DNA of 64,000 bases from Armatimonadota bacterium (GTDB taxonomy: Bacteria; Armatimonadota; Hebobacteria; CAIYQO01), in the NCBI GenBank assembly GCA_038248345.1, contig JBBRXO010000003.1, positions 13,546 through 77,545 of the forward strand, given 5' to 3'. A program made the position numbers and the translations under genes. The notes under the pieces were generated by a model. It worked only from the letters and a program-made list of their open reading frames with translations, had not been told where the DNA came from and did not search any database. Shown here piece after piece: positions 1 through 52,102 of this stretch (position 1 is the first letter of the stretch; each line of letters opens with the position of its first letter).

Positions 1-2463
1 GAGCCGATCCTGGAACGTCAGATACATCACCTCATCAACGGTGCCGAAGGCATCTGGCATATGGGACAACGCGACATCATCTGGATGCGCATCAGCAAAG
101 CCGCCAAGGAAAAAGGCTTCAGCATCAAACATTTCGGTGAGATCATTCACGCGAAGTTGCTCAATGAGTACCCGGCCATCGTGGACAAAGTGCAGGTAAC
201 GCTGGTTACCGATAAGGACGAAGTAGAGCGACGGTTGGACATTGCGCGGCGCAGCTATCGCGAACGCAACCTGCGCGTAGAGTCGATGACTGACGAGAGC
301 GTTGACACCTTCTATTCATGTCTGCTCTGCCAGAGTTTCGCCCCCAACCATGTCTGCGTCATCACGCCGGAGCGACTGGGTCTCTGCGGCGCTTACAACT
401 GGTTAGACGGCAAGGCCGCCTATGAGATTGACCCCACCGGCCCCAATCAGCCGCTCATCAAAGGTGAATGTATCGATCCGGTGCGCGGGCAGTGGAAAGA
501 TATCAACGAGTACGTCTACTCTAACTCTAAGCAGACCATTGAGCGTTTTAACGCTTATTCAATGCTGGAAGACCCGATGACCAGTTGTGGCTGTTTTGAG
601 GCTATCGTCGCCATGCTGCCGGAGTGCAATGGGGTGATGATCGTCAACCGTGAGTTCCCCGGCGATACTCCGGCGGGAATGCGATTCTCTACACTGGCGG
701 GGAGTACGGGGGGCGGGCAGCAGACTCCCGGTTTCATCGGCGTCGGCAAAGCCTATATTGTCAGTAAGAAATTCATCTCGGCGGAAGGCGGGCATAAGCG
801 CATCGTCTGGATGCCGCGTGAGCTGAAAGAAGCGCTGAAAGAAGACCTGGAGTTGATCGGCAAACGTCTCGGTATTGAGAACTATTGTGATCTTATCGCA
901 GATGAGACCGTCGGGTCAGATACCGCCTCTGTCAACGCCTATATGCAGAAGGTCAATCACCCGGCGCTGACCATGTGGGATGTAACCACCCCTTCACCGG
1001 AATGCGCTGCCATTGACGCTGCGCGCGGCGTTGTAGCTGCTACCGCTCCAATTGAGGCGGATGCTCCGGTGGTAACAGCAAATGTAGAAAAAGCAGCAGC
1101 GCCAGTCGTTGCCGTGGCACCGACAGCAGTTGCTGTGGCCGCCCCGGCGCCAGTGGTAGCTGCAAATCAAGTAGATGGTCTGTCCTATGTCATATCAGTA
1201 CTTGATAAAGTGCGTGCCACGGGCGTTGCACCGGTTGCTGGTACCAATATGGATCAGCAGATGGCCGCCTTGCAGATGTCCACCGCGGTGAATCTGCTGA
1301 CAGCTGGCGCCAATATGCTGCTAATGTACAGTGGCGCACTCGGCCAGGTACCGGTGGCTCCTGTTGCGTTGCCTATTGCTCACACGGCAGTAACGGAAGT
1401 AGATGTGGCAGTGGCTCCGACGGTTCACCCGATAGCTGCCACATGGGATACCCCGATACTGGTTAAAGAGAAACTGGTTACCTCGGCGAAAATTGCCGTC
1501 CCCGCTACCTTTAAGATACCGGGCGAAAGCGCTAGCTTGTCAGTTCGTGAGGTCACCCTTGGTGGTAGTGGTACGCGCACCTCGTCGCTCACCCTCGGTG
1601 GAGCCAGCGTATTGCCCTTCCGCCATTACGAGGGTAACATTGGGCGCACTCCGGCAATTGCTATGGAGGTATTTGACCGTCTGCCACGCAACTACCCACA
1701 GTCATTGCGGGACGCCTACGGAGATATGCTCACCGATGCGCCGAAGATGGCGAAGTACTGCGTCGAGGAGCTAGGCGCGCAGGCAATCAGCATTCGTTTG
1801 GACAGCACCCACCCGGACAATGAGGACACCTCTCCGGCGGCCGCGTGCGACTTTGTACAGGGCGTGCTTAGTGCCGTCGGTGTGCCGATTATTGTCACCG
1901 GCCCCAGCCATTACGAGAAGAACAATGCCGTGATGAAACAGGTAGCAAGCACCTTCACTGGCGAGAACTTGCTGCTGAACTGGGTGGAGACGGATAACTA
2001 CAAAACCATCGCCGCCGCCGCCATGGCATATAACCATTGTATTGTGACGCAGACCCCGATTGACGTGAATATGGCTAAACAGTTGAATATTCTCGTCACT
2101 AATATGGGGCTAGCTCCCGAAAAAATCATCATCGACGCGCTGACCGGCGCGCTGGGGTACGGTCTGGAGTACACTTACTCGGTGATGGAGCGTATCCGTA
2201 GCTCGGTCTTCACCGGAGACAGTATGCTGGCATTGCCGATGTTAGGCACGCCCGGCTACGAGATCGCCAAAACAAAAGAAAGCAAAGCGCCGCAAAGCTC
2301 CTTCAAAAATTGGGGCCCAGAGAGCGAGCGGGGCGCATTACTGGAGATCGCAACTGCGATGAGTTTGCTCAATGCTGGCGCTGATCTGCTGGTGATGTAT
2401 CACCCCATCGCGGCAACAACCGTGAAGAAAAAAATTGCCGAGATGACTCGGTTAGAGGACTAA
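1..2463 (+). CDS. acsB-acsD: Acetyl-CoA synthase (AcsB/CdhC, C-terminal part; gene starts before the window) fused in frame to corrinoid Fe-S protein small subunit (AcsD/CdhD)
   Basis: Frame is open from base 1 (EPILERQIHHLINGAEGIWH). A-cluster motifs SCLLCQSFAPNHVC..GLCGA and DPMTSCGCFE are present, and the AcsB end HPALTM lies at ~960-980. An Ala/Val/Pro linker follows, then AcsD motifs VREVTLGG, PIDVNMAKQLN, LGYGLEYTYSVMERIR and AGADLLVMYHP. Confidence 0.93.
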   Translation, partial: EPILERQIHHLINGAEGIWHMGQRDIIWMRISKAAKEKGFSIKHFGEIIHAKLLNEYPAIVDKVQVTLVTDKDEVERRLDIARRSYRERNLRVESMTDESVDTFYSCLLCQSFAPNHVCVITPERLGLCGAYNWLDGKAAYEIDPTGPNQPLIKGECIDPVRGQWKDINEYVYSNSKQTIERFNAYSMLEDPMTSCGCFEAIVAMLPECNGVMIVNREFPGDTPAGMRFSTLAGSTGGGQQTPGFIGVGKAYIVSKKFISAEGGHKRIVWMPRELKEALKEDLELIGKRLGIENYCDLIADETVGSDTASVNAYMQKVNHPALTMWDVTTPSPECAAIDAARGVVAATAPIEADAPVVTANVEKAAAPVVAVAPTAVAVAAPAPVVAANQVDGLSYVISVLDKVRATGVAPVAGTNMDQQMAALQMSTAVNLLTAGANMLLMYSGALGQVPVAPVALPIAHTAVTEVDVAVAPTVHPIAATWDTPILVKEKLVTSAKIAVPATFKIPGESASLSVREVTLGGSGTRTSSLTLGGASVLPFRHYEGNIGRTPAIAMEVFDRLPRNYPQSLRDAYGDMLTDAPKMAKYCVEELGAQAISIRLDSTHPDNEDTSPAAACDFVQGVLSAVGVPIIVTGPSHYEKNNAVMKQVASTFTGENLLLNWVETDNYKTIAAAAMAYNHCIVTQTPIDVNMAKQLNILVTNMGLAPEKIIIDALTGALGYGLEYTYSVMERIRSSVFTGDSMLALPMLGTPGYEIAKTKESKAPQSSFKNWGPESERGALLEIATAMSLLNAGADLLVMYHPIAATTVKKKIAEMTRLED

Positions 2464-2476
2464 AGGGAGCACGAAG

Positions 2477-3820
2477 ATGGCATTAACTGGTCTGGATATC
2501 TTTAAAATATTGCCCAAAACCAACTGTACTGAATGTGGCGTGCCCACTTGTATGGCATTTGCCATGAAGTTGGCCGCCAAAAGTGTCGAGCTCTCCGCTT
2601 GTCCGTATGCCTCGGAAGAGGCAAAGACAAAGATCGGCGCGGCGAGTAAGCCCCCGATCAGGTTGGTCAAACTCGGGCCAACTGATCGTGAGGTGTTACT
2701 GGGGAACGAAACCGTGATGTTTCGTCACGAGAAGACCTTCGTTCATCCCCCAGCCTTCGCAGTAGCCTTCTCCGATGAGCAATCAGCGGGCGACCTGGCG
2801 CATCTCACCGCTACTGTGCGTGAATATTGCCTGGAGCGCGTGGGTGAGGAGCTTACTCTCGATCTGGTACTGATTGAAAACACCAGCGAAGAGGTAGAGC
2901 CGTTCATAGCCGCTATCCGCGCAGTGGCGGCCAGCGCCGGACGCGGGGTGATCCTGAAGAGTAGCAACGTGGCGGCTCTGGAAGCTGGTGCGCAATTGCT
3001 GGAAGGTCAGCGTCCCTTATTACATGCGGCGACCACCGAAAATGTGGATGCCGTGGCAGCTATTGCGCTGAAATACAAATGCGCGGTGGTAGCGCAGGCC
3101 GCGACGCTGGATGAACTGGCGGCGCTGACAAAGAAGCTGGCCGCGCTGGGTGTGCAAGATATCGTGCTCGATATCCCGGCGGATAATATCGCGGCTACGC
3201 TGCAGAATAATACCCTTGCGCGTAAGGCGGCATTGAAGACCGCTTTTGAACCGATGGGCTACCCGGTCATCAACTTCGTTGTAGAGGAAGACCTGCCCAG
3301 TCTGGTGGCAGATGCTTCGACTTTGATCTGTAAATACGCGTCGATCCTGGTGATAGATACACTTTCCTATCAGGCGCTATTGCCGTTGATGATGTTACGG
3401 CAGAATATCTATACCGACCCGCAGAAACCGATCCAAGTAGAGCCGAAGATCTACCCCATCGGGGAGCCGGATGATAATTCACCGGTACTGGTTACTACCA
3501 ACTTCTCGCTGACATACTTCATCGTTTCGGGAGAGATTGAGAACTCAGGTATATCCGCGCACCTCGTTATTGTCGAATGCGAAGGGATGAGCGTGCTTAC
3601 CGCCTGGGCAGCCGGGAAGTTCTCCGGCGAGAAGATCGCGCAGTTCATCAAATCCTCCGGCCTGGAACAGCAGGTTAAAACCCGCCGCCTCATCATCCCC
3701 GGCTATGTCGCGCAGATCAGCGGCGACCTGGAAGAGGGGCTGAAAGGCTGGGAGATAGTCGTCGGACCGCAAGAAGCATCCGACCTGGGGCCGTTTATGA
3801 AGCTACAGGTGGGTAAGTAA
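2477..3820 (+). CDS. acsC: Corrinoid Fe-S protein large subunit (AcsC/CdhE)
   Basis: MALTGLDIFKILPKTNCTECGVPTCMAFA 4Fe-4S N-terminus, plus RQNIYTDPQKP, TTNFSLTYF and SVLTAWAAGKF. Confidence 0.97.
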   Translation: MALTGLDIFKILPKTNCTECGVPTCMAFAMKLAAKSVELSACPYASEEAKTKIGAASKPPIRLVKLGPTDREVLLGNETVMFRHEKTFVHPPAFAVAFSDEQSAGDLAHLTATVREYCLERVGEELTLDLVLIENTSEEVEPFIAAIRAVAASAGRGVILKSSNVAALEAGAQLLEGQRPLLHAATTENVDAVAAIALKYKCAVVAQAATLDELAALTKKLAALGVQDIVLDIPADNIAATLQNNTLARKAALKTAFEPMGYPVINFVVEEDLPSLVADASTLICKYASILVIDTLSYQALLPLMMLRQNIYTDPQKPIQVEPKIYPIGEPDDNSPVLVTTNFSLTYFIVSGEIENSGISAHLVIVECEGMSVLTAWAAGKFSGEKIAQFIKSSGLEQQVKTRRLIIPGYVAQISGDLEEGLKGWEIVVGPQEASDLGPFMKLQVGK

Positions 3821-5932: not shown

Positions 5933-6829
5933 ATGAAATCACTTCTCGAACGCCTTGCCGCCGGTGAGATCCTTATCTCAGACGGGGCCATGGGCACTTT
6001 CCTTCAGGCGAAGGGCCTGCAACCCGGCGAATCTCCTGAGGCGTGGTGTTGCTCGCATCCGGACGCTGTGAAGAGTATTGCCGAGGCTTACATTGCTGCT
6101 GGCTCGGATATTGTTGAGACCGATTCCTTCGGCGGCACTACTTTCAAGCAGCGCGAATTCGGTCTGGCAGATAAGGTTGATGAGTTCAACACTGCCTCTG
6201 CCAAGCTAGCCAAAGAAGCCATGGGCGACAAAGGCTATGTGGCGGCATCGGTAGGCCCCACCGGGCAAATTGTCGAGGATGAGGGCGGCGATGTCACCGA
6301 AGAAGAGCTTTATGAAGCCTTCAAACAGCAAGTAATCGCGCTGGCCGCTGGCGGTGCCGATGCGGTCTGTATTGAAACCATGTCATCCGTTACTGAGGCA
6401 GTGCAAGCCATCAAAGCCAGCAAAGATAACACTGACCTGCTGGTGATTGCTACCTTCACCTTCGAGCCAGGTGCGCACGGCTTCCGCACAATGATGGGCG
6501 TCACCCCTTCGCGCGCCGCCGGGGAATCGGTGGCCGCCGGCGCCGACATCATTGGCGCTAATTGTGGCAATGGCATCGCTAATATGATTGAGATCACCCG
6601 CGAATTGCGCGCCGCCGCCCCTAATACCCCGATCCTTATCCACGCGAACGCTGGTATGCCGGTATTTGAAGACGGCAATACCGTATTCAAAGAGACTCCT
6701 GCCGACATGGCAGCCCGCGTAAAGGAATTGGTCGAAGCTGGAGCCAATATAATTGGTGGTTGCTGTGGCACCACGCCTGCGCATATAGCAGCGATGGCAG
6801 AAGTGGCACGGGGATGTGGAAAAAGCTAA
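5933..6829 (+). CDS. Stand-alone homocysteine S-methyltransferase domain protein (MetH N-terminal/BHMT family)
   Basis: SDGAMGT, AGSDIVETDSFGG, ASVGPTG, IETMS and Zn ligands GANC and GGCCGTTP; GGAGG RBS before ATG 5933. Confidence 0.9.
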   Translation: MKSLLERLAAGEILISDGAMGTFLQAKGLQPGESPEAWCCSHPDAVKSIAEAYIAAGSDIVETDSFGGTTFKQREFGLADKVDEFNTASAKLAKEAMGDKGYVAASVGPTGQIVEDEGGDVTEEELYEAFKQQVIALAAGGADAVCIETMSSVTEAVQAIKASKDNTDLLVIATFTFEPGAHGFRTMMGVTPSRAAGESVAAGADIIGANCGNGIANMIEITRELRAAAPNTPILIHANAGMPVFEDGNTVFKETPADMAARVKELVEAGANIIGGCCGTTPAHIAAMAEVARGCGKS

Positions 6830-8171: not shown

Positions 8172-10786
8172 CTACGACCACTCAATGACGAAATAGCAGT
8201 TATCGGCGGCATTGTGGCGATACCAGGTGTTCTGGGTTTCTTCATCAGGATAACTGATATGGGCGTAGGTTTCGGTGCTTTCGACAGCAGCAGTCAGATT
8301 ATTCCAGGTAACCGGCGCGCCATTGATCCATTGCCAGTGTTCATCACGATAGAAGAGTCCCAGATGATAATTACTTATTAAACTGGAATCACATACACTG
8401 GAGAGATAACGAAACAACGCCTGGGTGGATCGCTGCGAAGTTGGACATGCGAGATGGCCACCCTGGCTTTGGCAGAAGGCTTCCGCGTCGTGCCAGGTCA
8501 TCTGGTGCGGGATGGCGATAAATCGGAAACCATCACATTCAGTTACCCAGCGAGTGAGGTCTACAGTAGAGGTAGACGCTGATTGAGAAGGCATCCAAGC
8601 GCGTAACGCCTGATGGATGGGATCAAGCACGGAGAGAACATAACCGACACGATGACTATTAATCTGGCGTAACGTAGGGATATCAGTGAGATCAGGTAGT
8701 GCCTATTGATGTATGATATTGAACTCCAATTGGCGTAAGGGTAATTGGCGCAGTACCGTGGCATTCGATGCTGTGAGCTGAACACCATCCAGTAAAAGTA
8801 CCGCCAGCGGTTTACCAGCTAATGGAGTAATATCCTCAATGAGAGTCTGGCGGCAGTCCAGAATAGTGAGGGGACTACTGGCGAGCGGGGATAGATCACG
8901 TATCGGATTCTTTCCGCACTCCAACCGGTGCAGTGGTAAACCCTGAAGCGGAGTTAGATCGGTAACATAATTCACCGTGAGCATAAGCTGCAATAATGAA
9001 GATCCGCTAAGTGGAGTCAGGTCGGTGATCTTGTTAAAGCGACAATCCAGCAATCTCAAGTGTATCCCTTGTAAAGGTGATAAGGTAGTGATGCCATTTG
9101 AATGGCATTGCAGACTCTCCAGAGGTGTGCCGACCAATGGGGAGAGGTCAGTTATCTGATTATTATTAAACTCGCATTCCGTTAATGGCATCCCTCGTAG
9201 CGGAGATATATCAGTAATCAGGTTGGATCCGCAATCTAGAGTTCGTAATGGCATGCCCATTAAAGGTGAGAGGTCATTGATGCTATTACCTTGGCAGTTC
9301 AATAAGGTTAAAGACATGCCAGCGAGTGGTGTGAGCGATGTAATGCCAGTTTTACGAATATTCAGACGCTGTAACGACATACTGGCTATAGCGTTCAATA
9401 TCGTTTGCTTCTCCTTGGCTGTCGAATTGATAAATAGCTGTCGGAGGCGATCCACGACTAAATGTGGAGTTTCGTCTGTACGATTCAAGGCCAATAGTTG
9501 TGTCAACGTCGTCATTACTCCGGCGATATCATGTCGCGTCAGACGAAAAAGCGCTAGCTCGCGCAATGCCTGCTGAGCAAAGGGATGATCGACGCTAATC
9601 CCGATCGTTTCCAGGGCTGCATCTTTAGCGTCGCCATGATGATCTGGCATGGCCAGGGCGGCGAGATACGCTGCCTCATTGCGCAAGGCAGGGTCAGTGA
9701 TCTCCTTACCAGTACGTACAAACCACTTCCAGGCGAGTTCAGCTGCGCCCTGCGACATCAGCACGCGCCCGGGTTCCAATATCGATACATACATGGGGGA
9801 ACGACGTGAATGAATGCGTAGCTGGCGGATATCCGCGCTACCCTCATTAAAATGGCGTCCTAGCGCCACGTAGCGACAGGTATCGCCGGTGAGGGAGAAA
9901 GGGGCATGGTATTCCATGATGCGTTGGCCATCTATTTCAGCATAAAAGGTATCCCGTTCACGCCAGAGTGACACACTGAATTGCGATGCTTCATGGTTTA
10001 GCATGATGTTGCACACAGACAACACTTCCCAAGTACCATGTTGCACTGTTTCAAAGGTGATATGGTCATAATTCTGCAGGTGTAAGCGATAGCCAGTAAG
10101 GAGATCACCAGAGACGGCGAGGTAGATATTTATACCATCGTGCAGGCGATTATCAATAACAACATCCAGGCAGGCCTCTTCTGATAGGTCACCTTCCCAA
10201 CGCAGATGAGTCCACCAGAAGGCCGGGAGCAGGCGGAGCATCCCGTCTTCCAGCACGATACGCTCAGGAGCAAGGTGTTGTGGCGCCTCCAATTCACTCG
10301 CGAAGTCCTGATACCAGTAGACGTTTAAGCGTGCATCGAGTTCTTGAGTCTGCGAAAAATCAGCCTCGAGTACAGTATTCCAGTGTACCTGAAAAAGCTC
10401 GCTTTGCTGCACAGTACCCATCCCAATATTCGCAGAATCAGGCGCTGGTGGTAGTTCCTTCCGCTTTTGCGAGGGAGTTACCCCGAAGTATTTGTGGAAG
10501 AGGCGAGAAAAATAGAAACTGTCGGCATAGCCAACTGCTTCGGCGACAGCAACTATCGTCAATTCATGATTTAGCAGCAGTGTGGCGGCTTTTTCCATGC
10601 GAAGTGAAAGCAGATAGTGAATGGGACTCATGCCGAAAAATCGCTTGAACCTTTTGCAAAAGTAATTAGGGGTGATGCAAAGAGAAGGGCGAGATCATCT
10701 AATGATATCGCCTCGACGTAGTGTTCTTCCATGTAGGATTTTACACCGATGTATGTATATGGAATCTGAGCCTGATCATTTTGCAT
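8172..10786 (-). pseudogene. Disrupted AraC-HTH / ConA-like / helical / LRR / C-type lectin fusion gene
   Basis: Start ~10786 (MQNDQAQ..YMEEHYVEAISLDDLA). A frameshift at ~10680 leads into CITPNYFCKRFKRFFGMSPIHY..GYADSFYFSRLF. About 10 internalin-like LRRs (ITDLSPL.G..L) follow, then an in-frame TAG at 8703-8705, then ALPDLTDIPTLRQIN and a C-lectin domain (MTWHDAEAFCQSQGGHLA..WQWING..FVIEW). Confidence 0.8.
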
Positions 10787-11253: not shown

Positions 11254-12420
11254 ATGTATTCATAACTACGTCGAGGGTTTACCCTCATCGAACTGCTGGT
11301 GGTTATCGCGATCATCGCGATTTTAGCCGCCATTCTCTTTCCCGTGTTCTCTAAGGCTCGTGAAAAAGCCCGGCAGACACAGTGCCAGAACAACCAACGC
11401 CAGCTGGCCATCGCCATCAGCATGTACACGCAGGAGCACGAAGAGACCCTGCCCTTAAATGCTACCGTTTGGCAGTCACTGAAATTGACCTCGGCACTCT
11501 CCTCCAACCAAGCCGCTTTAGCAGTAAGCAGTAGCGTAACCAAATGCCCGAACAAACCACAGGCTAATGGCTATGTCTACAATGGTATGCTCTCCGGCGT
11601 CTCCCTGGGCGATGCCAGCAAGGGCGACCCCACCGGCGTGTGGATGATTGCTGATGGAAATTCAGCTGATCCAGCTATGCCCAACGTAGCTTCTGGAATA
11701 GGTGATGTAGACGGCATTCGCCACGCCAACAGCTTCATTGCCGCCGCCCTGGATGGCCATGTGGAAATGAACAAAACTGCCGACAAGGTCGCCTGGAATG
11801 GCCGTGCTGGCAACTACGGTTTGCTGTTGTATAATAACCCGAATCTTTTTGCTGGTATGACATCAGGCTTAGTTACAACAAGTGGTTCGTTAACAGTTTC
11901 CCCACAAGCGCAAGCTGCTGGTACAGGAGAACCTTACAACTCTACTATCGTCTGGTTTGATTCACCAAACAATAAACTGACGTTAAATGCAGCAGCTCAC
12001 GGACATTCCTCTGCTTCTATTGACTTTGCTTCATCTGTTGCCGGCGCTAACTATTTTGAAGTAACAGGAAGTATTAATTTCAGCAAATCTTGTTGGAGCG
12101 GCGATTCTGGCGGTGGTGCTGACCCAGGCGTATTAACCTTTGCTTCTGGTAATACTCCTATGGTAGTCATCAAAGGAGTGGGGAATACATCTATTACCGT
12201 AAATGATACAACTGTACCTGGTATTAGCCCGACTGCAATCAATCTCTTCAAAGTAATAATCCGTAGTGACAACACCGTCACTGTCACTATTGGTGGAATA
12301 TCAGTCAATACCACCGGTGGCCCAATCAACAAGATAACATTAGATTTACCGATTACTACTAGAGATACGCAAAGTCAATGCATCGCCGAATTATCCAATC
12401 TCGGTATTTTGGCAAAATAG
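11254..12420 (+). pseudogene. Prepilin-type N-terminal cleavage/methylation (DUF1559/H-X9-DG) protein with a nonsense codon at position 4
   Basis: AAGGAG RBS, then ATG TAT TCA TAA CTA CGT CGA GGG TTT ACC CTC ATC GAA = MYS*LRRG^[48 protein letters not shown] motif. Confidence 0.85.
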
Positions 12421-50290: not shown

Positions 50291-52102
50291 ATGTCAACTG
50301 TAAATCTAATTATTAATGGAAAACAACTGGCCGTAGAAGAAGGCATTTCTGTGCTGGAAGCGGCCAAGCACAATAATATTCTGATCCCCCACTTGTGTTA
50401 CTTAGAGGGGGTTCATCAGATCGGCGCCTGTCGTGTATGTGTTGTGGAGATTGAAGGTGCGCGTACTTTGCAGGCCTCATGTTTGGTGCCAGTACGTGAG
50501 GGTATGGTGGTGAAGACCAACACCGACAAAGTGCGTAAAGCGCGCAAGGTGCTCTATGAACTGATGCTCTCCGACCATCCACGCGACTGCCTGAGCTGCT
50601 CGCGTAATCAAAACTGCGAGTTCCAGAAGCTGGGTGAGTTGATCCAGGTCACCGAATATCGCTTTGAAGGTGAGAAGTCGCGCGCCTTCCTGGATAGCTC
50701 CAGCCCATCCATTACGCGCGATACCTCCAAGTGTATTCTCTGCCGCAGGTGCATCACCGTCTGCAATGATATTCAAGGGGTGGGGGTGCTGAATGTGCAG
50801 AAACGTGGCTTTAAGACGGTCGTCGGCCCCGCTGATGAGTTGCCCTTGAATTCTGTGAACTGTGCCAATTGCGGGCAATGCACCGTTGTATGTCCGGTGG
50901 GGGCGCTCGTCGAGAAAGATGCCACGCAGCCGGTCTGGCAGGCACTGCTCGATCCAACGAAACGCGTTGTGGTGCAGACGGCTCCCGCTATCCGCGCCGC
51001 CCTGGGCGAGGAGTTCGGTTACCCGGCGGGCACGCTGGTGACGGGCAAAATGGCCACTGCGCTGCGCGAGATGGGCTTCGATGATGTCTTCGATACCAAC
51101 TTCACCGCTGACCTGACTATCCTGGAAGAAGGGCATGAACTGCTGCAGCGGGTAACGGCAGCATTAACCGGCGGACAAGCCTCGCTGCCGATGATCACCT
51201 CGTGCTCACCAGGCTGGATCAAGTATATCGAGCATGAATTCCCGCAACTGGTATCGCACCTGTCTACCTGCAAGTCGCCGCATATGATGCTGGGCGCGCT
51301 GGCAAAGTCCTACTACGCTGATAAAATAGGAGTGCCGGCGAAGGATATGTACGTGGTATCGGTAATGCCGTGTACGGCGAAGAAATATGAGATCAGCCGA
51401 CCGGAGATGTTCCTCGATGGTATGCCCACCGTGGACGCCGTCCTCACCACCCGAGAGCTGGCGCGCATGATCAAGGATGCGGGCATCTCCTTCGATACAC
51501 TGGAGGACTCGGAATTCGATAGCCCGCTGGGGTATTCCACCGGGGCTGCCGATATCTTCGGCACCACTGGCGGAGTGATGGAAGCCGCGCTACGCACTGT
51601 CTATGAAGTAGTGACTGGCCGTGAAGTGCCGTTCGCACATCTGGATATCACCCCGGTACGCGGGCTGTTCCAGGTGAAGGAAGCCTTCATTACTATCGAA
51701 GATGCCAAGCCGGAATTCGCCTTCCTCAATGGGGTAAGGGTAGGTATCGCTGTCACCAGCGGACTCTCCGGCGCGAAGAAGCTGATGCGGCAGATCGCCG
51801 ATGGTACCTCACCGTACCACTTCATTGAAGTGATGGGGTGCCCTAACGGTTGCATCAGCGGTGGTGGACAGCCACGACCGACGACCAATGCGATACGCAA
51901 AGCGCGTATGGAAGCCATCTACGCCGAAGACGCTGGCAAAGCCATGCGCAAATCGCACGAGAACCCCTTCGTCATCAATCTGTACGAGGAGTTCCTCGGT
52001 GAGCCGCTGGGACATAAATCCCACGAGCTACTGCATACGCACTATGTGAAACGTGGACGTTACAATGAATTGTGCAACTGTGATGAGGAAGAGCAGGAAT
52101 AG
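50291..52102 (+). CDS. hydA: [FeFe]-hydrogenase group A catalytic subunit (M3 type)
   Basis: H-cluster motifs TSCSPGW, MPCTAKKYE and EVMGCPNGCISGGGQP; N-terminal 2Fe-2S, His-ligated 4Fe-4S and 2x4Fe-4S. Confidence 0.97.
   Translation: MSTVNLIINGKQLAVEEGISVLEAAKHNNILIPHLCYLEGVHQIGACRVCVVEIEGARTLQASCLVPVREGMVVKTNTDKVRKARKVLYELMLSDHPRDCLSCSRNQNCEFQKLGELIQVTEYRFEGEKSRAFLDSSSPSITRDTSKCILCRRCITVCNDIQGVGVLNVQKRGFKTVVGPADELPLNSVNCANCGQCTVVCPVGALVEKDATQPVWQALLDPTKRVVVQTAPAIRAALGEEFGYPAGTLVTGKMATALREMGFDDVFDTNFTADLTILEEGHELLQRVTAALTGGQASLPMITSCSPGWIKYIEHEFPQLVSHLSTCKSPHMMLGALAKSYYADKIGVPAKDMYVVSVMPCTAKKYEISRPEMFLDGMPTVDAVLTTRELARMIKDAGISFDTLEDSEFDSPLGYSTGAADIFGTTGGVMEAALRTVYEVVTGREVPFAHLDITPVRGLFQVKEAFITIEDAKPEFAFLNGVRVGIAVTSGLSGAKKLMRQIADGTSPYHFIEVMGCPNGCISGGGQPRPTTNAIRKARMEAIYAEDAGKAMRKSHENPFVINLYEEFLGEPLGHKSHELLHTHYVKRGRYNELCNCDEEEQE

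Follow-up and report, generated by a model that had tools for sequence, protein, structure and literature searches.

The bacterial CODH/ACS systems of Moorella thermoacetica, Carboxydothermus hydrogenoformans and Clostridium autoethanogenum (PDB 9FZY, 4DJD, 2H9A) all have a separate corrinoid iron-sulfur protein (CFeSP). In the archaeal ACDS of Methanosarcina acetivorans, the hexa- to octameric hub is built from a helix of CdhD that is flanked by disordered sequence (PMC13370988, a 2026 preprint). The same text contrasts bacterial CODH/ACS and its free CFeSP with the hub-and-spoke architecture of ACDS and asks why they differ; its authors know of no oligomerising bacterial CFeSP and report no such disordered region for it. 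The window analysed in the current study, a stretch of 64,000 nucleotides from a contig (C3) of an Armatimonadota bacterium, opens with a reading frame in which acetyl-CoA synthase (AcsB) and the small CFeSP subunit (AcsD) are joined. It raises the questions of whether this fusion is real, what its linker does, and in which direction the tethered system transfers methyl groups.

Architecture and distribution of the AcsB-AcsD fusion

Positions 1-2463 of the window represent a single open frame of 820 codons with an open 5' end. The whole gene (C3:12355-16008) starts 1190 bases upstream of the window and encodes 1217 amino acids. AcsB comprises residues 1-724 (NF040764, 1073 bits vs. a cut-off of 800; PF18537, PF03598, PF19436), carries all three domains A1, A2 and A3 over the curated cut-off of this family and ends near window position 975-981. 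AcsD comprises residues ~900-1217 (NF003376, 357 bits vs. a cut-off of 280; PF03599) and exhibits the full TIM barrel of the CdhD family (Foldseek match to 4djd_D with E 6e-32, rmsd 2.0 and TMt 0.92). The AlphaFold2 model of the part located in the window resembles solved chains of ACS and of the small CFeSP subunit. Six cysteines, C504, C507, C516, C526, C593 and C595, are invariant in all 92 aligned fusions and are taken, as in Moorella ACS, to be the ligands of the A-cluster. The sequence-only reading of this DNA had proposed an uninterrupted AcsB-AcsD frame with intact A-cluster cysteines, followed by acsC; the 1217-aa frame with both parts over their curated cut-offs, the six invariant cysteines and a complete acsC directly downstream are in full agreement with it. 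A promoter scan retrieved seven sites vs. 13.3 expected. The features of the locus are as follows.

1..981, + strand: 3' part of AcsB (residues 398-724); domain matches and structure matches 3git, 1ru3 and 8cmw
319..594, + strand: presumed A-cluster cysteines C504 to C595; 92/92 fusions
982-1506, + strand: whole linker of 175 aa between AcsB and AcsD
982..1173, + strand: linker arm 1, Ala/Val/Pro-rich and variable; predicted to be disordered beyond a short helix (pLDDT <50 over window-aa 347-391)
1174..1335, + strand: two-helix module (residues 789-842) with helices at ~1177-1218 and 1249-1329; 115/120 relatives
1336..1506, + strand: linker arm 2, Ala/Val/Pro-rich and variable; predicted to be disordered
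1507..2463, + strand: AcsD, TIM barrel of the small CFeSP subunit, complete with stop codon; NF003376, Foldseek 4djd_D
2164..2400, + strand: AcsD helices that the module resembles (window-aa 722-737 and 774-791; strand at 796-799)
2477..3820, + strand: acsC, large CFeSP subunit with Fe-S and corrinoid domains; NF003195, 562 bits vs. a cut-off of 306; PF04060
3870..5792, + strand: acsV, RACo-type corrinoid reductive activator; RACo Pfam domains, NF040756 with 607 bits, under the cut-off of 800
5933..6829, + strand: stand-alone homocysteine S-methyltransferase domain of the split MetH type; PF02574, E 1.5e-69
C3:8489-9547, upstream of the fusion: mesB-like gene, 352 aa; H223, C225, D244, C321

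The genome assembly consists of 185 contigs, and the frame could accordingly be a product of misassembly or faulty gene calling, or else a read-through of recent origin without function. A contig from run X1, possibly the source sample (record 5), covers positions 795-3820 with 0 differences. A second one from run X4 of another study (record 25) spans positions 1-3820 with 377 substitutions and 0 gaps. Support across the linker, which had been proposed as a check, is thereby provided by a gap-free independent contig, i.e. at the level of contigs and not of raw reads. When proteins of 669-2130 aa were searched with the AcsD part, 7997 candidates were scored and 1130 of them matched. The C-terminal domain of ACS (PF19436) is also present in all of the best 120 of these 1130 homologues, and Armatimonadota and Acidobacteriota are among their source names. 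A tree was calculated for 58 AcsD parts, 45 of which come from fusions (33 of the 120 proteins and 12 loci, with other linker types left out). These 45 rows form one clade with a support of 100/99, and its sister group consists of three unfused rows. Independent assemblies that span the fusion and the presence of both parts in 120 of 120 listed homologues led us to reject the artefact, whose remaining probability is negligible. The AcsB-AcsD fusion is real.

The sequence-only reading, which knew of no characterised example, had missed that the fusion is widespread, as documented by the best 120 long homologues and by CdhC+CdhD clusters of 66, 143 and 106 members in the ESM Atlas. The 18 GTDB loci comprise 14 with the fusion in one frame, one with frameshifted pieces and three with separate genes. 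The window genome shares its family with a record named Armatimonadota. Within this family, five of the 11 relatives harbor the fusion in one frame (G002, G005, G006, G008, G011), G010 has a fused frame of 1200 aa that is ended by the contig edge, and two members possess a different, canonical cluster instead. The closest unfused relatives that were found show 55-57% identity in AcsD, and the gene order acsB-cooC-acsD-acsC is present in two unfused loci. Close relatives with separate acsB and acsD genes at identical boundaries, which the sequence-only reading had named as a refuting case, were not seen among the loci compared.

A description of an AcsB-AcsD fusion was not found in the main texts that were covered, mostly those of papers available without subscription; the accessible parts of PMC13370988, 10.1101/2024.08.05.606187, PMC9782325, PMC5736913, PMC12296737 and PMC7005905 contain no mention of it that we could find. 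The fusion is real and conserved, and this form of a well-known enzyme system has apparently not been studied so far.

Conservation, origin and predicted self-association of the linker module

The linker had been described as Ala/Val/Pro-rich. This holds true for its two arms, but it is not featureless, because residues 789-842 form a strongly conserved two-helix module. Among the best 120 relatives the linker length ranges from 58 to 298 aa with a median of 183.5, and the arms vary freely in length and sequence, unlike the module, whose residues L821, T825, A826, L829, L830 and A832 recur in 115 of the 120 linkers. The five relatives that lack the module have short linkers of 58-86 aa and are located at two separate places inside the fused clade, thus indicating that the fusion works without it. 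AlphaFold2 predicts two helices (790-803 and 814-840) with a pLDDT of 64-70, and the flanking arms reach about 33.

Profile comparison aligns the module with the two near-C-terminal helices of its own AcsD (hhalign probability 83.5, E 8.4e-6). For this internal repeat hhalign controls were used in place of a shuffle test, and they revealed no likeness to AcsB, AcsC or CooC. The only PDB match of the module is again the small CFeSP subunit, albeit a weak one (E 0.98). A profile search of 1.84 billion representatives yielded 21 matches; judged by eye, 20 of them are pieces of the fusion and one is the C-terminus of an AcsD. As the module aligns with helices of AcsD and with none of the three controls, it likely goes back to a duplication of part of acsD during the gene fusion. 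Three other origins were rejected, namely a remnant of cooC, which separates acsB from acsD in unfused relatives (no likeness to CooC2), a copy of AcsB or AcsC (negative controls), and a widespread mobile domain (no matches beyond the fusion pieces and the single AcsD C-terminus).

The module lacks the strand and the loop between its source helices, and its hydrophobic residues are conserved on several faces. A structural clue to the source helices comes from DHPS, a barrel related to AcsD according to a structure match, in which helices 6-9 represent the dimer interface (PMC3098144). By analogy with this dimer face we infer that the copied AcsD helices would face AcsC.

The module was also subjected to complex prediction with four copies of residues 783-850 and a custom alignment. 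The predicted self-association score was 0.49 vs. 0.00 for the best control. In the calibration, which used two copies, 20 of 30 solved pairs and one of 23 single chains attained the score mark; for single chains the proportion may be as high as 19 in 100. At least 65% of the contacts are shared between the runs, the pLDDT is 61 or more, and one of three runs scored 0.29. In the predicted packing, helix 2 lies antiparallel on helix 2, and a second face is formed at residues 825, 829, 832 and 836. These models make it reasonably probable that the module is a self-associating hub, which would hold several chains together.

Two other roles have to be weighed against the hub. The fusion might be a plain swinging-arm tether that raises the local concentration of CFeSP, with the module as a folded remnant or spacer that forms no oligomer. 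The five fusions without the module, the linkers of other fusion lineages, which are devoid of it, and the modest monomer pLDDT of its helices are compatible with such a tether, but a hydrophobic helix that is near-invariant in 115 of 120 relatives between freely varying arms is difficult to understand as a spacer, and the prediction of self-association with all controls at 0.00 points in the same direction. Alternatively, the module may bind another partner, either capping or chaperoning AcsC or AcsD or recruiting MesB, RACo or the homocysteine methyltransferase domain. This possibility is in accordance with the conserved partner genes beside the fusion and with source helices that correspond to the dimer face of the DHPS barrel; it is at odds with a self-association prediction that passes its mark, with a module that no longer has the intervening strand and loop and in which hydrophobic positions are conserved on several faces. 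We consider either role improbable and prefer the self-associating hub.

The cassette and the probable direction of methyl transfer

The fusion is embedded in a cassette with the gene order cooC, mesB-like (metE-like), cooC, acsA, acsB-D, acsC, acsV and homocysteine methyltransferase domain. The latter follows acsV in 12 of 15 fusion loci, and the mesB-like gene is located upstream in all 11 fusion loci that reach far enough. The positions His223, Cys225, Asp244 and Cys321 of the encoded protein match the spacing of the zinc ligands 214/216/235/311 of MesB, the protein stays within the size of less than ~390 aa that PMC7857596 gives for MesB, and its gene shows the linkage to acsCD reported there. 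Its neighbours in the Atlas are named methionine synthases, which are automatic names, and searches of Pfam and NCBIfam retrieved no family match. Based on ligand spacing, size and linkage it is a candidate MesB-like protein. In Dehalococcoides, where acetyl-CoA is cleaved, MesB has been proposed to take the methyl group from CFeSP (PMC7005905). An acsE gene was not found in or beside the cassette of the window. The absence of acsE from a cassette that harbors a mesB-like gene suggests that classical acetogenesis is probably not its role, and the cleavage of acetyl-CoA for the methyl groups of methionine appears likelier. To judge from its gene content, the cassette probably supplies methyl groups from acetyl-CoA independently of folate, and CODH would remove the CO.

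The competing explanation is that the tethered complex operates in ordinary Wood-Ljungdahl acetogenesis or in methylotrophy, with acsE and the folate genes elsewhere in the genome and MesB merely tapping the pool of methyl-CFeSP. The CODH gene acsA is indeed intact (TIGR01702 over its cut-off, TIGR00314 far under), and the window genome contains Fhs, FolD, four [FeFe]-hydrogenase matches and an AcsE-like gene, so that the system may be linked to the folate pool. The AcsE-like gene, which exceeds the cut-off of NF005719 and is the sole pterin-binding match of the genome, is located on C32, and the carriers of the window phylum have an AcsE-like match on another contig in ten of ten cases, two of which (G004, G031) were inferred as carriers from genes that run into contig ends. 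Of the 20 carriers 15 have MetF and five do not, vs. none without it among 17 genomes with separate genes, and a general rule that carriers lack MetF was accordingly rejected.

The location of the AcsE-like matches on other contigs and several further observations speak against acetogenesis. MetF, MetV, MetE and MttB gave no match in the window genome (G000, 95.7% complete), and nine of the ten Acidobacteriota carriers have no AcsE over the cut-off. In a quick tree the AcsE-like copy of the window genome groups with stand-alone copies and not with the cluster-linked ones (SH-aLRT 97), several of these stand-alone copies adjoin corrinoid, RACo or homocysteine methyltransferase genes, and in the canonical clusters of relatives acsE adjoins acsD or acsC. 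We therefore regard acetogenesis or methylotrophy as quite unlikely and retain the supply of methionine methyl groups as the preferred role.

The candidate assembly and its counterparts

The proposed machine would combine both readings. By analogy with solved bacterial complexes, AcsA would bind domain A1 of AcsB, and AcsC would bind the fused AcsD; in one of these complexes the small CFeSP subunit docks on the ACS domains A1 and A3 (10.1101/2024.08.05.606187). The arms, which are predicted to be disordered, would allow the CFeSP head to move back and forth between the A-cluster and other partners such as MesB and RACo, and the module is predicted to self-associate as an antiparallel dimer or a dimer of dimers. 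As a tetramer, the machine would have a mass of ~1 MDa, as estimated from the chain lengths, and a hub-and-spoke form like the archaeal ACDS. The flux would likely run from acetyl-CoA to methyl-CFeSP and CO, which CODH would oxidise, and MesB, perhaps together with the MetH-type domain, would methylate homocysteine without folate. That the module clamps the fused chains into one flexible CODH-ACS-CFeSP assembly, from which the acetyl-CoA methyl group would likely reach homocysteine, is a reading towards which we lean slightly; we go no further than this, because the hub and the direction of the flux are not fully independent.

The sequence-only reading had proposed a swinging-arm ACS-CFeSP module and a bacterial analogue of ACDS. 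The swinging arm fits the adjacent complete acsC and the arms predicted to be disordered, but the conserved helical module had been missed, as had the lack of acsE and the mesB-like gene in the cassette; the analogy is stronger than first proposed, because this AcsD-derived module is predicted to self-associate. In both the window system and the ACDS of M. acetivorans a helix precedes the CdhD/AcsD barrel within an Ala/Pro-rich disordered stretch, which is predicted in the present case. The helix pair of the fusion is likewise a predicted self-associating element, whereas the archaeal CdhD helix has been shown to be oligomeric. The bacterial-type AcsA and AcsB with domain A1 differ from the CdhA/CdhB CODH and the A1-lacking ACS of the ACDS type, ACS is joined covalently and not via disordered tails, and the helix resembles those of the AcsD barrel.

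The three-domain AcsB including A1, the A-cluster cysteines, AcsA, AcsC, the AcsD fold, RACo and CooC are shared with the bacterial CODH/ACS systems. Distinctive are the covalent attachment of AcsD to AcsB, the conserved helical module in the linker, and a cassette that lacks acsE and harbors a mesB-like gene. The MesB or core-MetE route of Dehalococcoides mccartyi (PMC7005905, PMC7857596) also has AcsB, AcsC and AcsD alongside a core methionine synthase-like protein with HCDC zinc ligands, and, in line with this route, no MetF was found in the window genome, unlike in most other fusion carriers. CODH is present in the cassette of the window, whereas Dehalococcoides reportedly has none; the fusion of AcsB and AcsD and the MetH-type homocysteine domain in the same cassette also set the window system apart from D. 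mccartyi.

Long proteins were moreover searched with two distant unfused AcsD queries, and the best 120 of 829 and of 130 matches, respectively, were listed. These listed matches include fusions of AcsD with CODH, with MetF and with AcsB of other lineages. One example is the AcsD-CODH fusion of Desulfomonile tiedjei (P0256), and other examples are the MetF-AcsD fusions of Thermosulfuriphilus ammonigenes (P0170) and Desulfurivibrio alkaliphilus (P0359). The AcsD fusions that were inspected resemble the window protein in having Ala/Pro-rich arms around a central helix-like stretch; they differ in the partner or in an unrelated central sequence, and the module was present in none of those tested. 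Two further linker types of AcsB-AcsD were found. The AcsD of the Chloroflexota type is 42% identical to that of the window, which lies below the 55-57% of the unfused sister group and suggests a separate origin. The second type shows 53% AcsD identity to the window protein and 59% to an unfused AcsD, and its origin is ambiguous. A single origin is supported only for the 45 rows near the window protein and not for all AcsB-AcsD fusions. A broader scenario, which we offer tentatively and with more doubt than confidence, is that bacteria have repeatedly built ACDS-like supercomplexes by fusing AcsD to ACS, CODH or MetF via disordered arms that surround an oligomerising helix. In the present case the copied dimer-face helices of AcsD would provide the hub of a folate-free methyl-supply machine of ~1 MDa in Armatimonadota and Acidobacteriota of sediment and soil.

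The fusions represent natural intermediates in which a bacterial ACS with A1 is combined with a covalently attached CFeSP subunit and a candidate hub, and the natural short-linker forms without the hub are built-in controls. They could ease the trapping of the transient methyl-transfer state and could also serve as a ready-made single-chain ACS-AcsD. The NCBI names of the full-length fusions, as far as shown, mention only subunit alpha/beta, and AcsD can hence be missed by annotators. Carriers may also be miscounted as acetogens where the cassette likely supplies the methyl groups of methionine.

Fusion partners and linkers of AcsD

The searches of long proteins with two distant, unfused AcsD queries (best 120 of 829 and of 130 matches; P-numbers) document that AcsD has been joined to several partners. 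MetF-AcsD fusions, some of them with TPR repeats, make up most of the matches listed from one search (e.g. P0170 and P0173) and recur in the second (P0359); their sources include Desulfobulbaceae, Desulfurivibrio alkaliphilus and Thermosulfuriphilus ammonigenes. Among the matches listed, AcsD is also located N-terminal to the CODH (AcsA) in one chain (P0142-P0146, P0171, P0178, P0194, P0198, P0233, P0234, P0236 and P0256), with Ala/Pro-rich arms flanking a central helix-like stretch; one carrier is Desulfomonile tiedjei (1099 aa). Single listed proteins combine AcsD with a CooC-type (P0262) or a pterin-binding domain (P0292).

Besides the linker type of the window, the matches listed contain AcsB-AcsD fusions with two more, each exhibiting its own, differing conserved amphipathic stretch:

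P0263, P0271, P0279, P0296, P0305: source names Planctomycetes, Oscillospiraceae, Eubacteriales or Spirochaetota
P0267, P0270, P0286: source names Chloroflexota or Anaerolineales

Cluster organization in related loci

The nearest unfused relatives (L028 5022-8969, L030 3399-7588) share the gene order mesB-like, acsA, acsB, cooC, acsD, acsC, and L031 retains cooC-acsD-acsC with other genes ahead of cooC. In the fused clade, this cooC gene is located upstream of acsA. Two genomes of the window's family, G007 (locus L043) and G009, harbor a different, canonical cluster instead, so that the cluster type is variable within this family:

L043 (G007) and G009: acsB, acsC, acsV, cooC, acsD, acsE; about 55% identity

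In the Acidobacteriota loci (flanks of L023-L027 and L029) the cassette is preceded by a GntR/FCD regulator (tested in L023 and L026) and followed by the cobamide salvage genes cbiZ and cobD (tested in L026). The cassette of one Acidobacteriaceae assembly (L029 3632-12565) is broken into many frameshifted pieces (acsA, acsB-D, acsV), reflecting either assembly error or decay.

Other genes of the window and its genome

Three further genes of the window were recorded, the latter two judged by eye:

window about 50960-51865 (C3:64505-65410): [FeFe]-hydrogenase large-subunit match, one of four in the window genome (G000)
window 8703-10631: 642-aa ORF, candidate AraC-type HTH followed by leucine-rich repeats
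window 11299-12420: protein with prepilin-like N-terminus

Three contigs of G000 carry scattered pieces resembling a MetH split into three parts, with a pterin-binding, a corrinoid and a homocysteine domain:

C32:9759-10550: split-MetH-like piece
C20 about 749-1477: split-MetH-like piece
window 5933-6829: split-MetH-like piece
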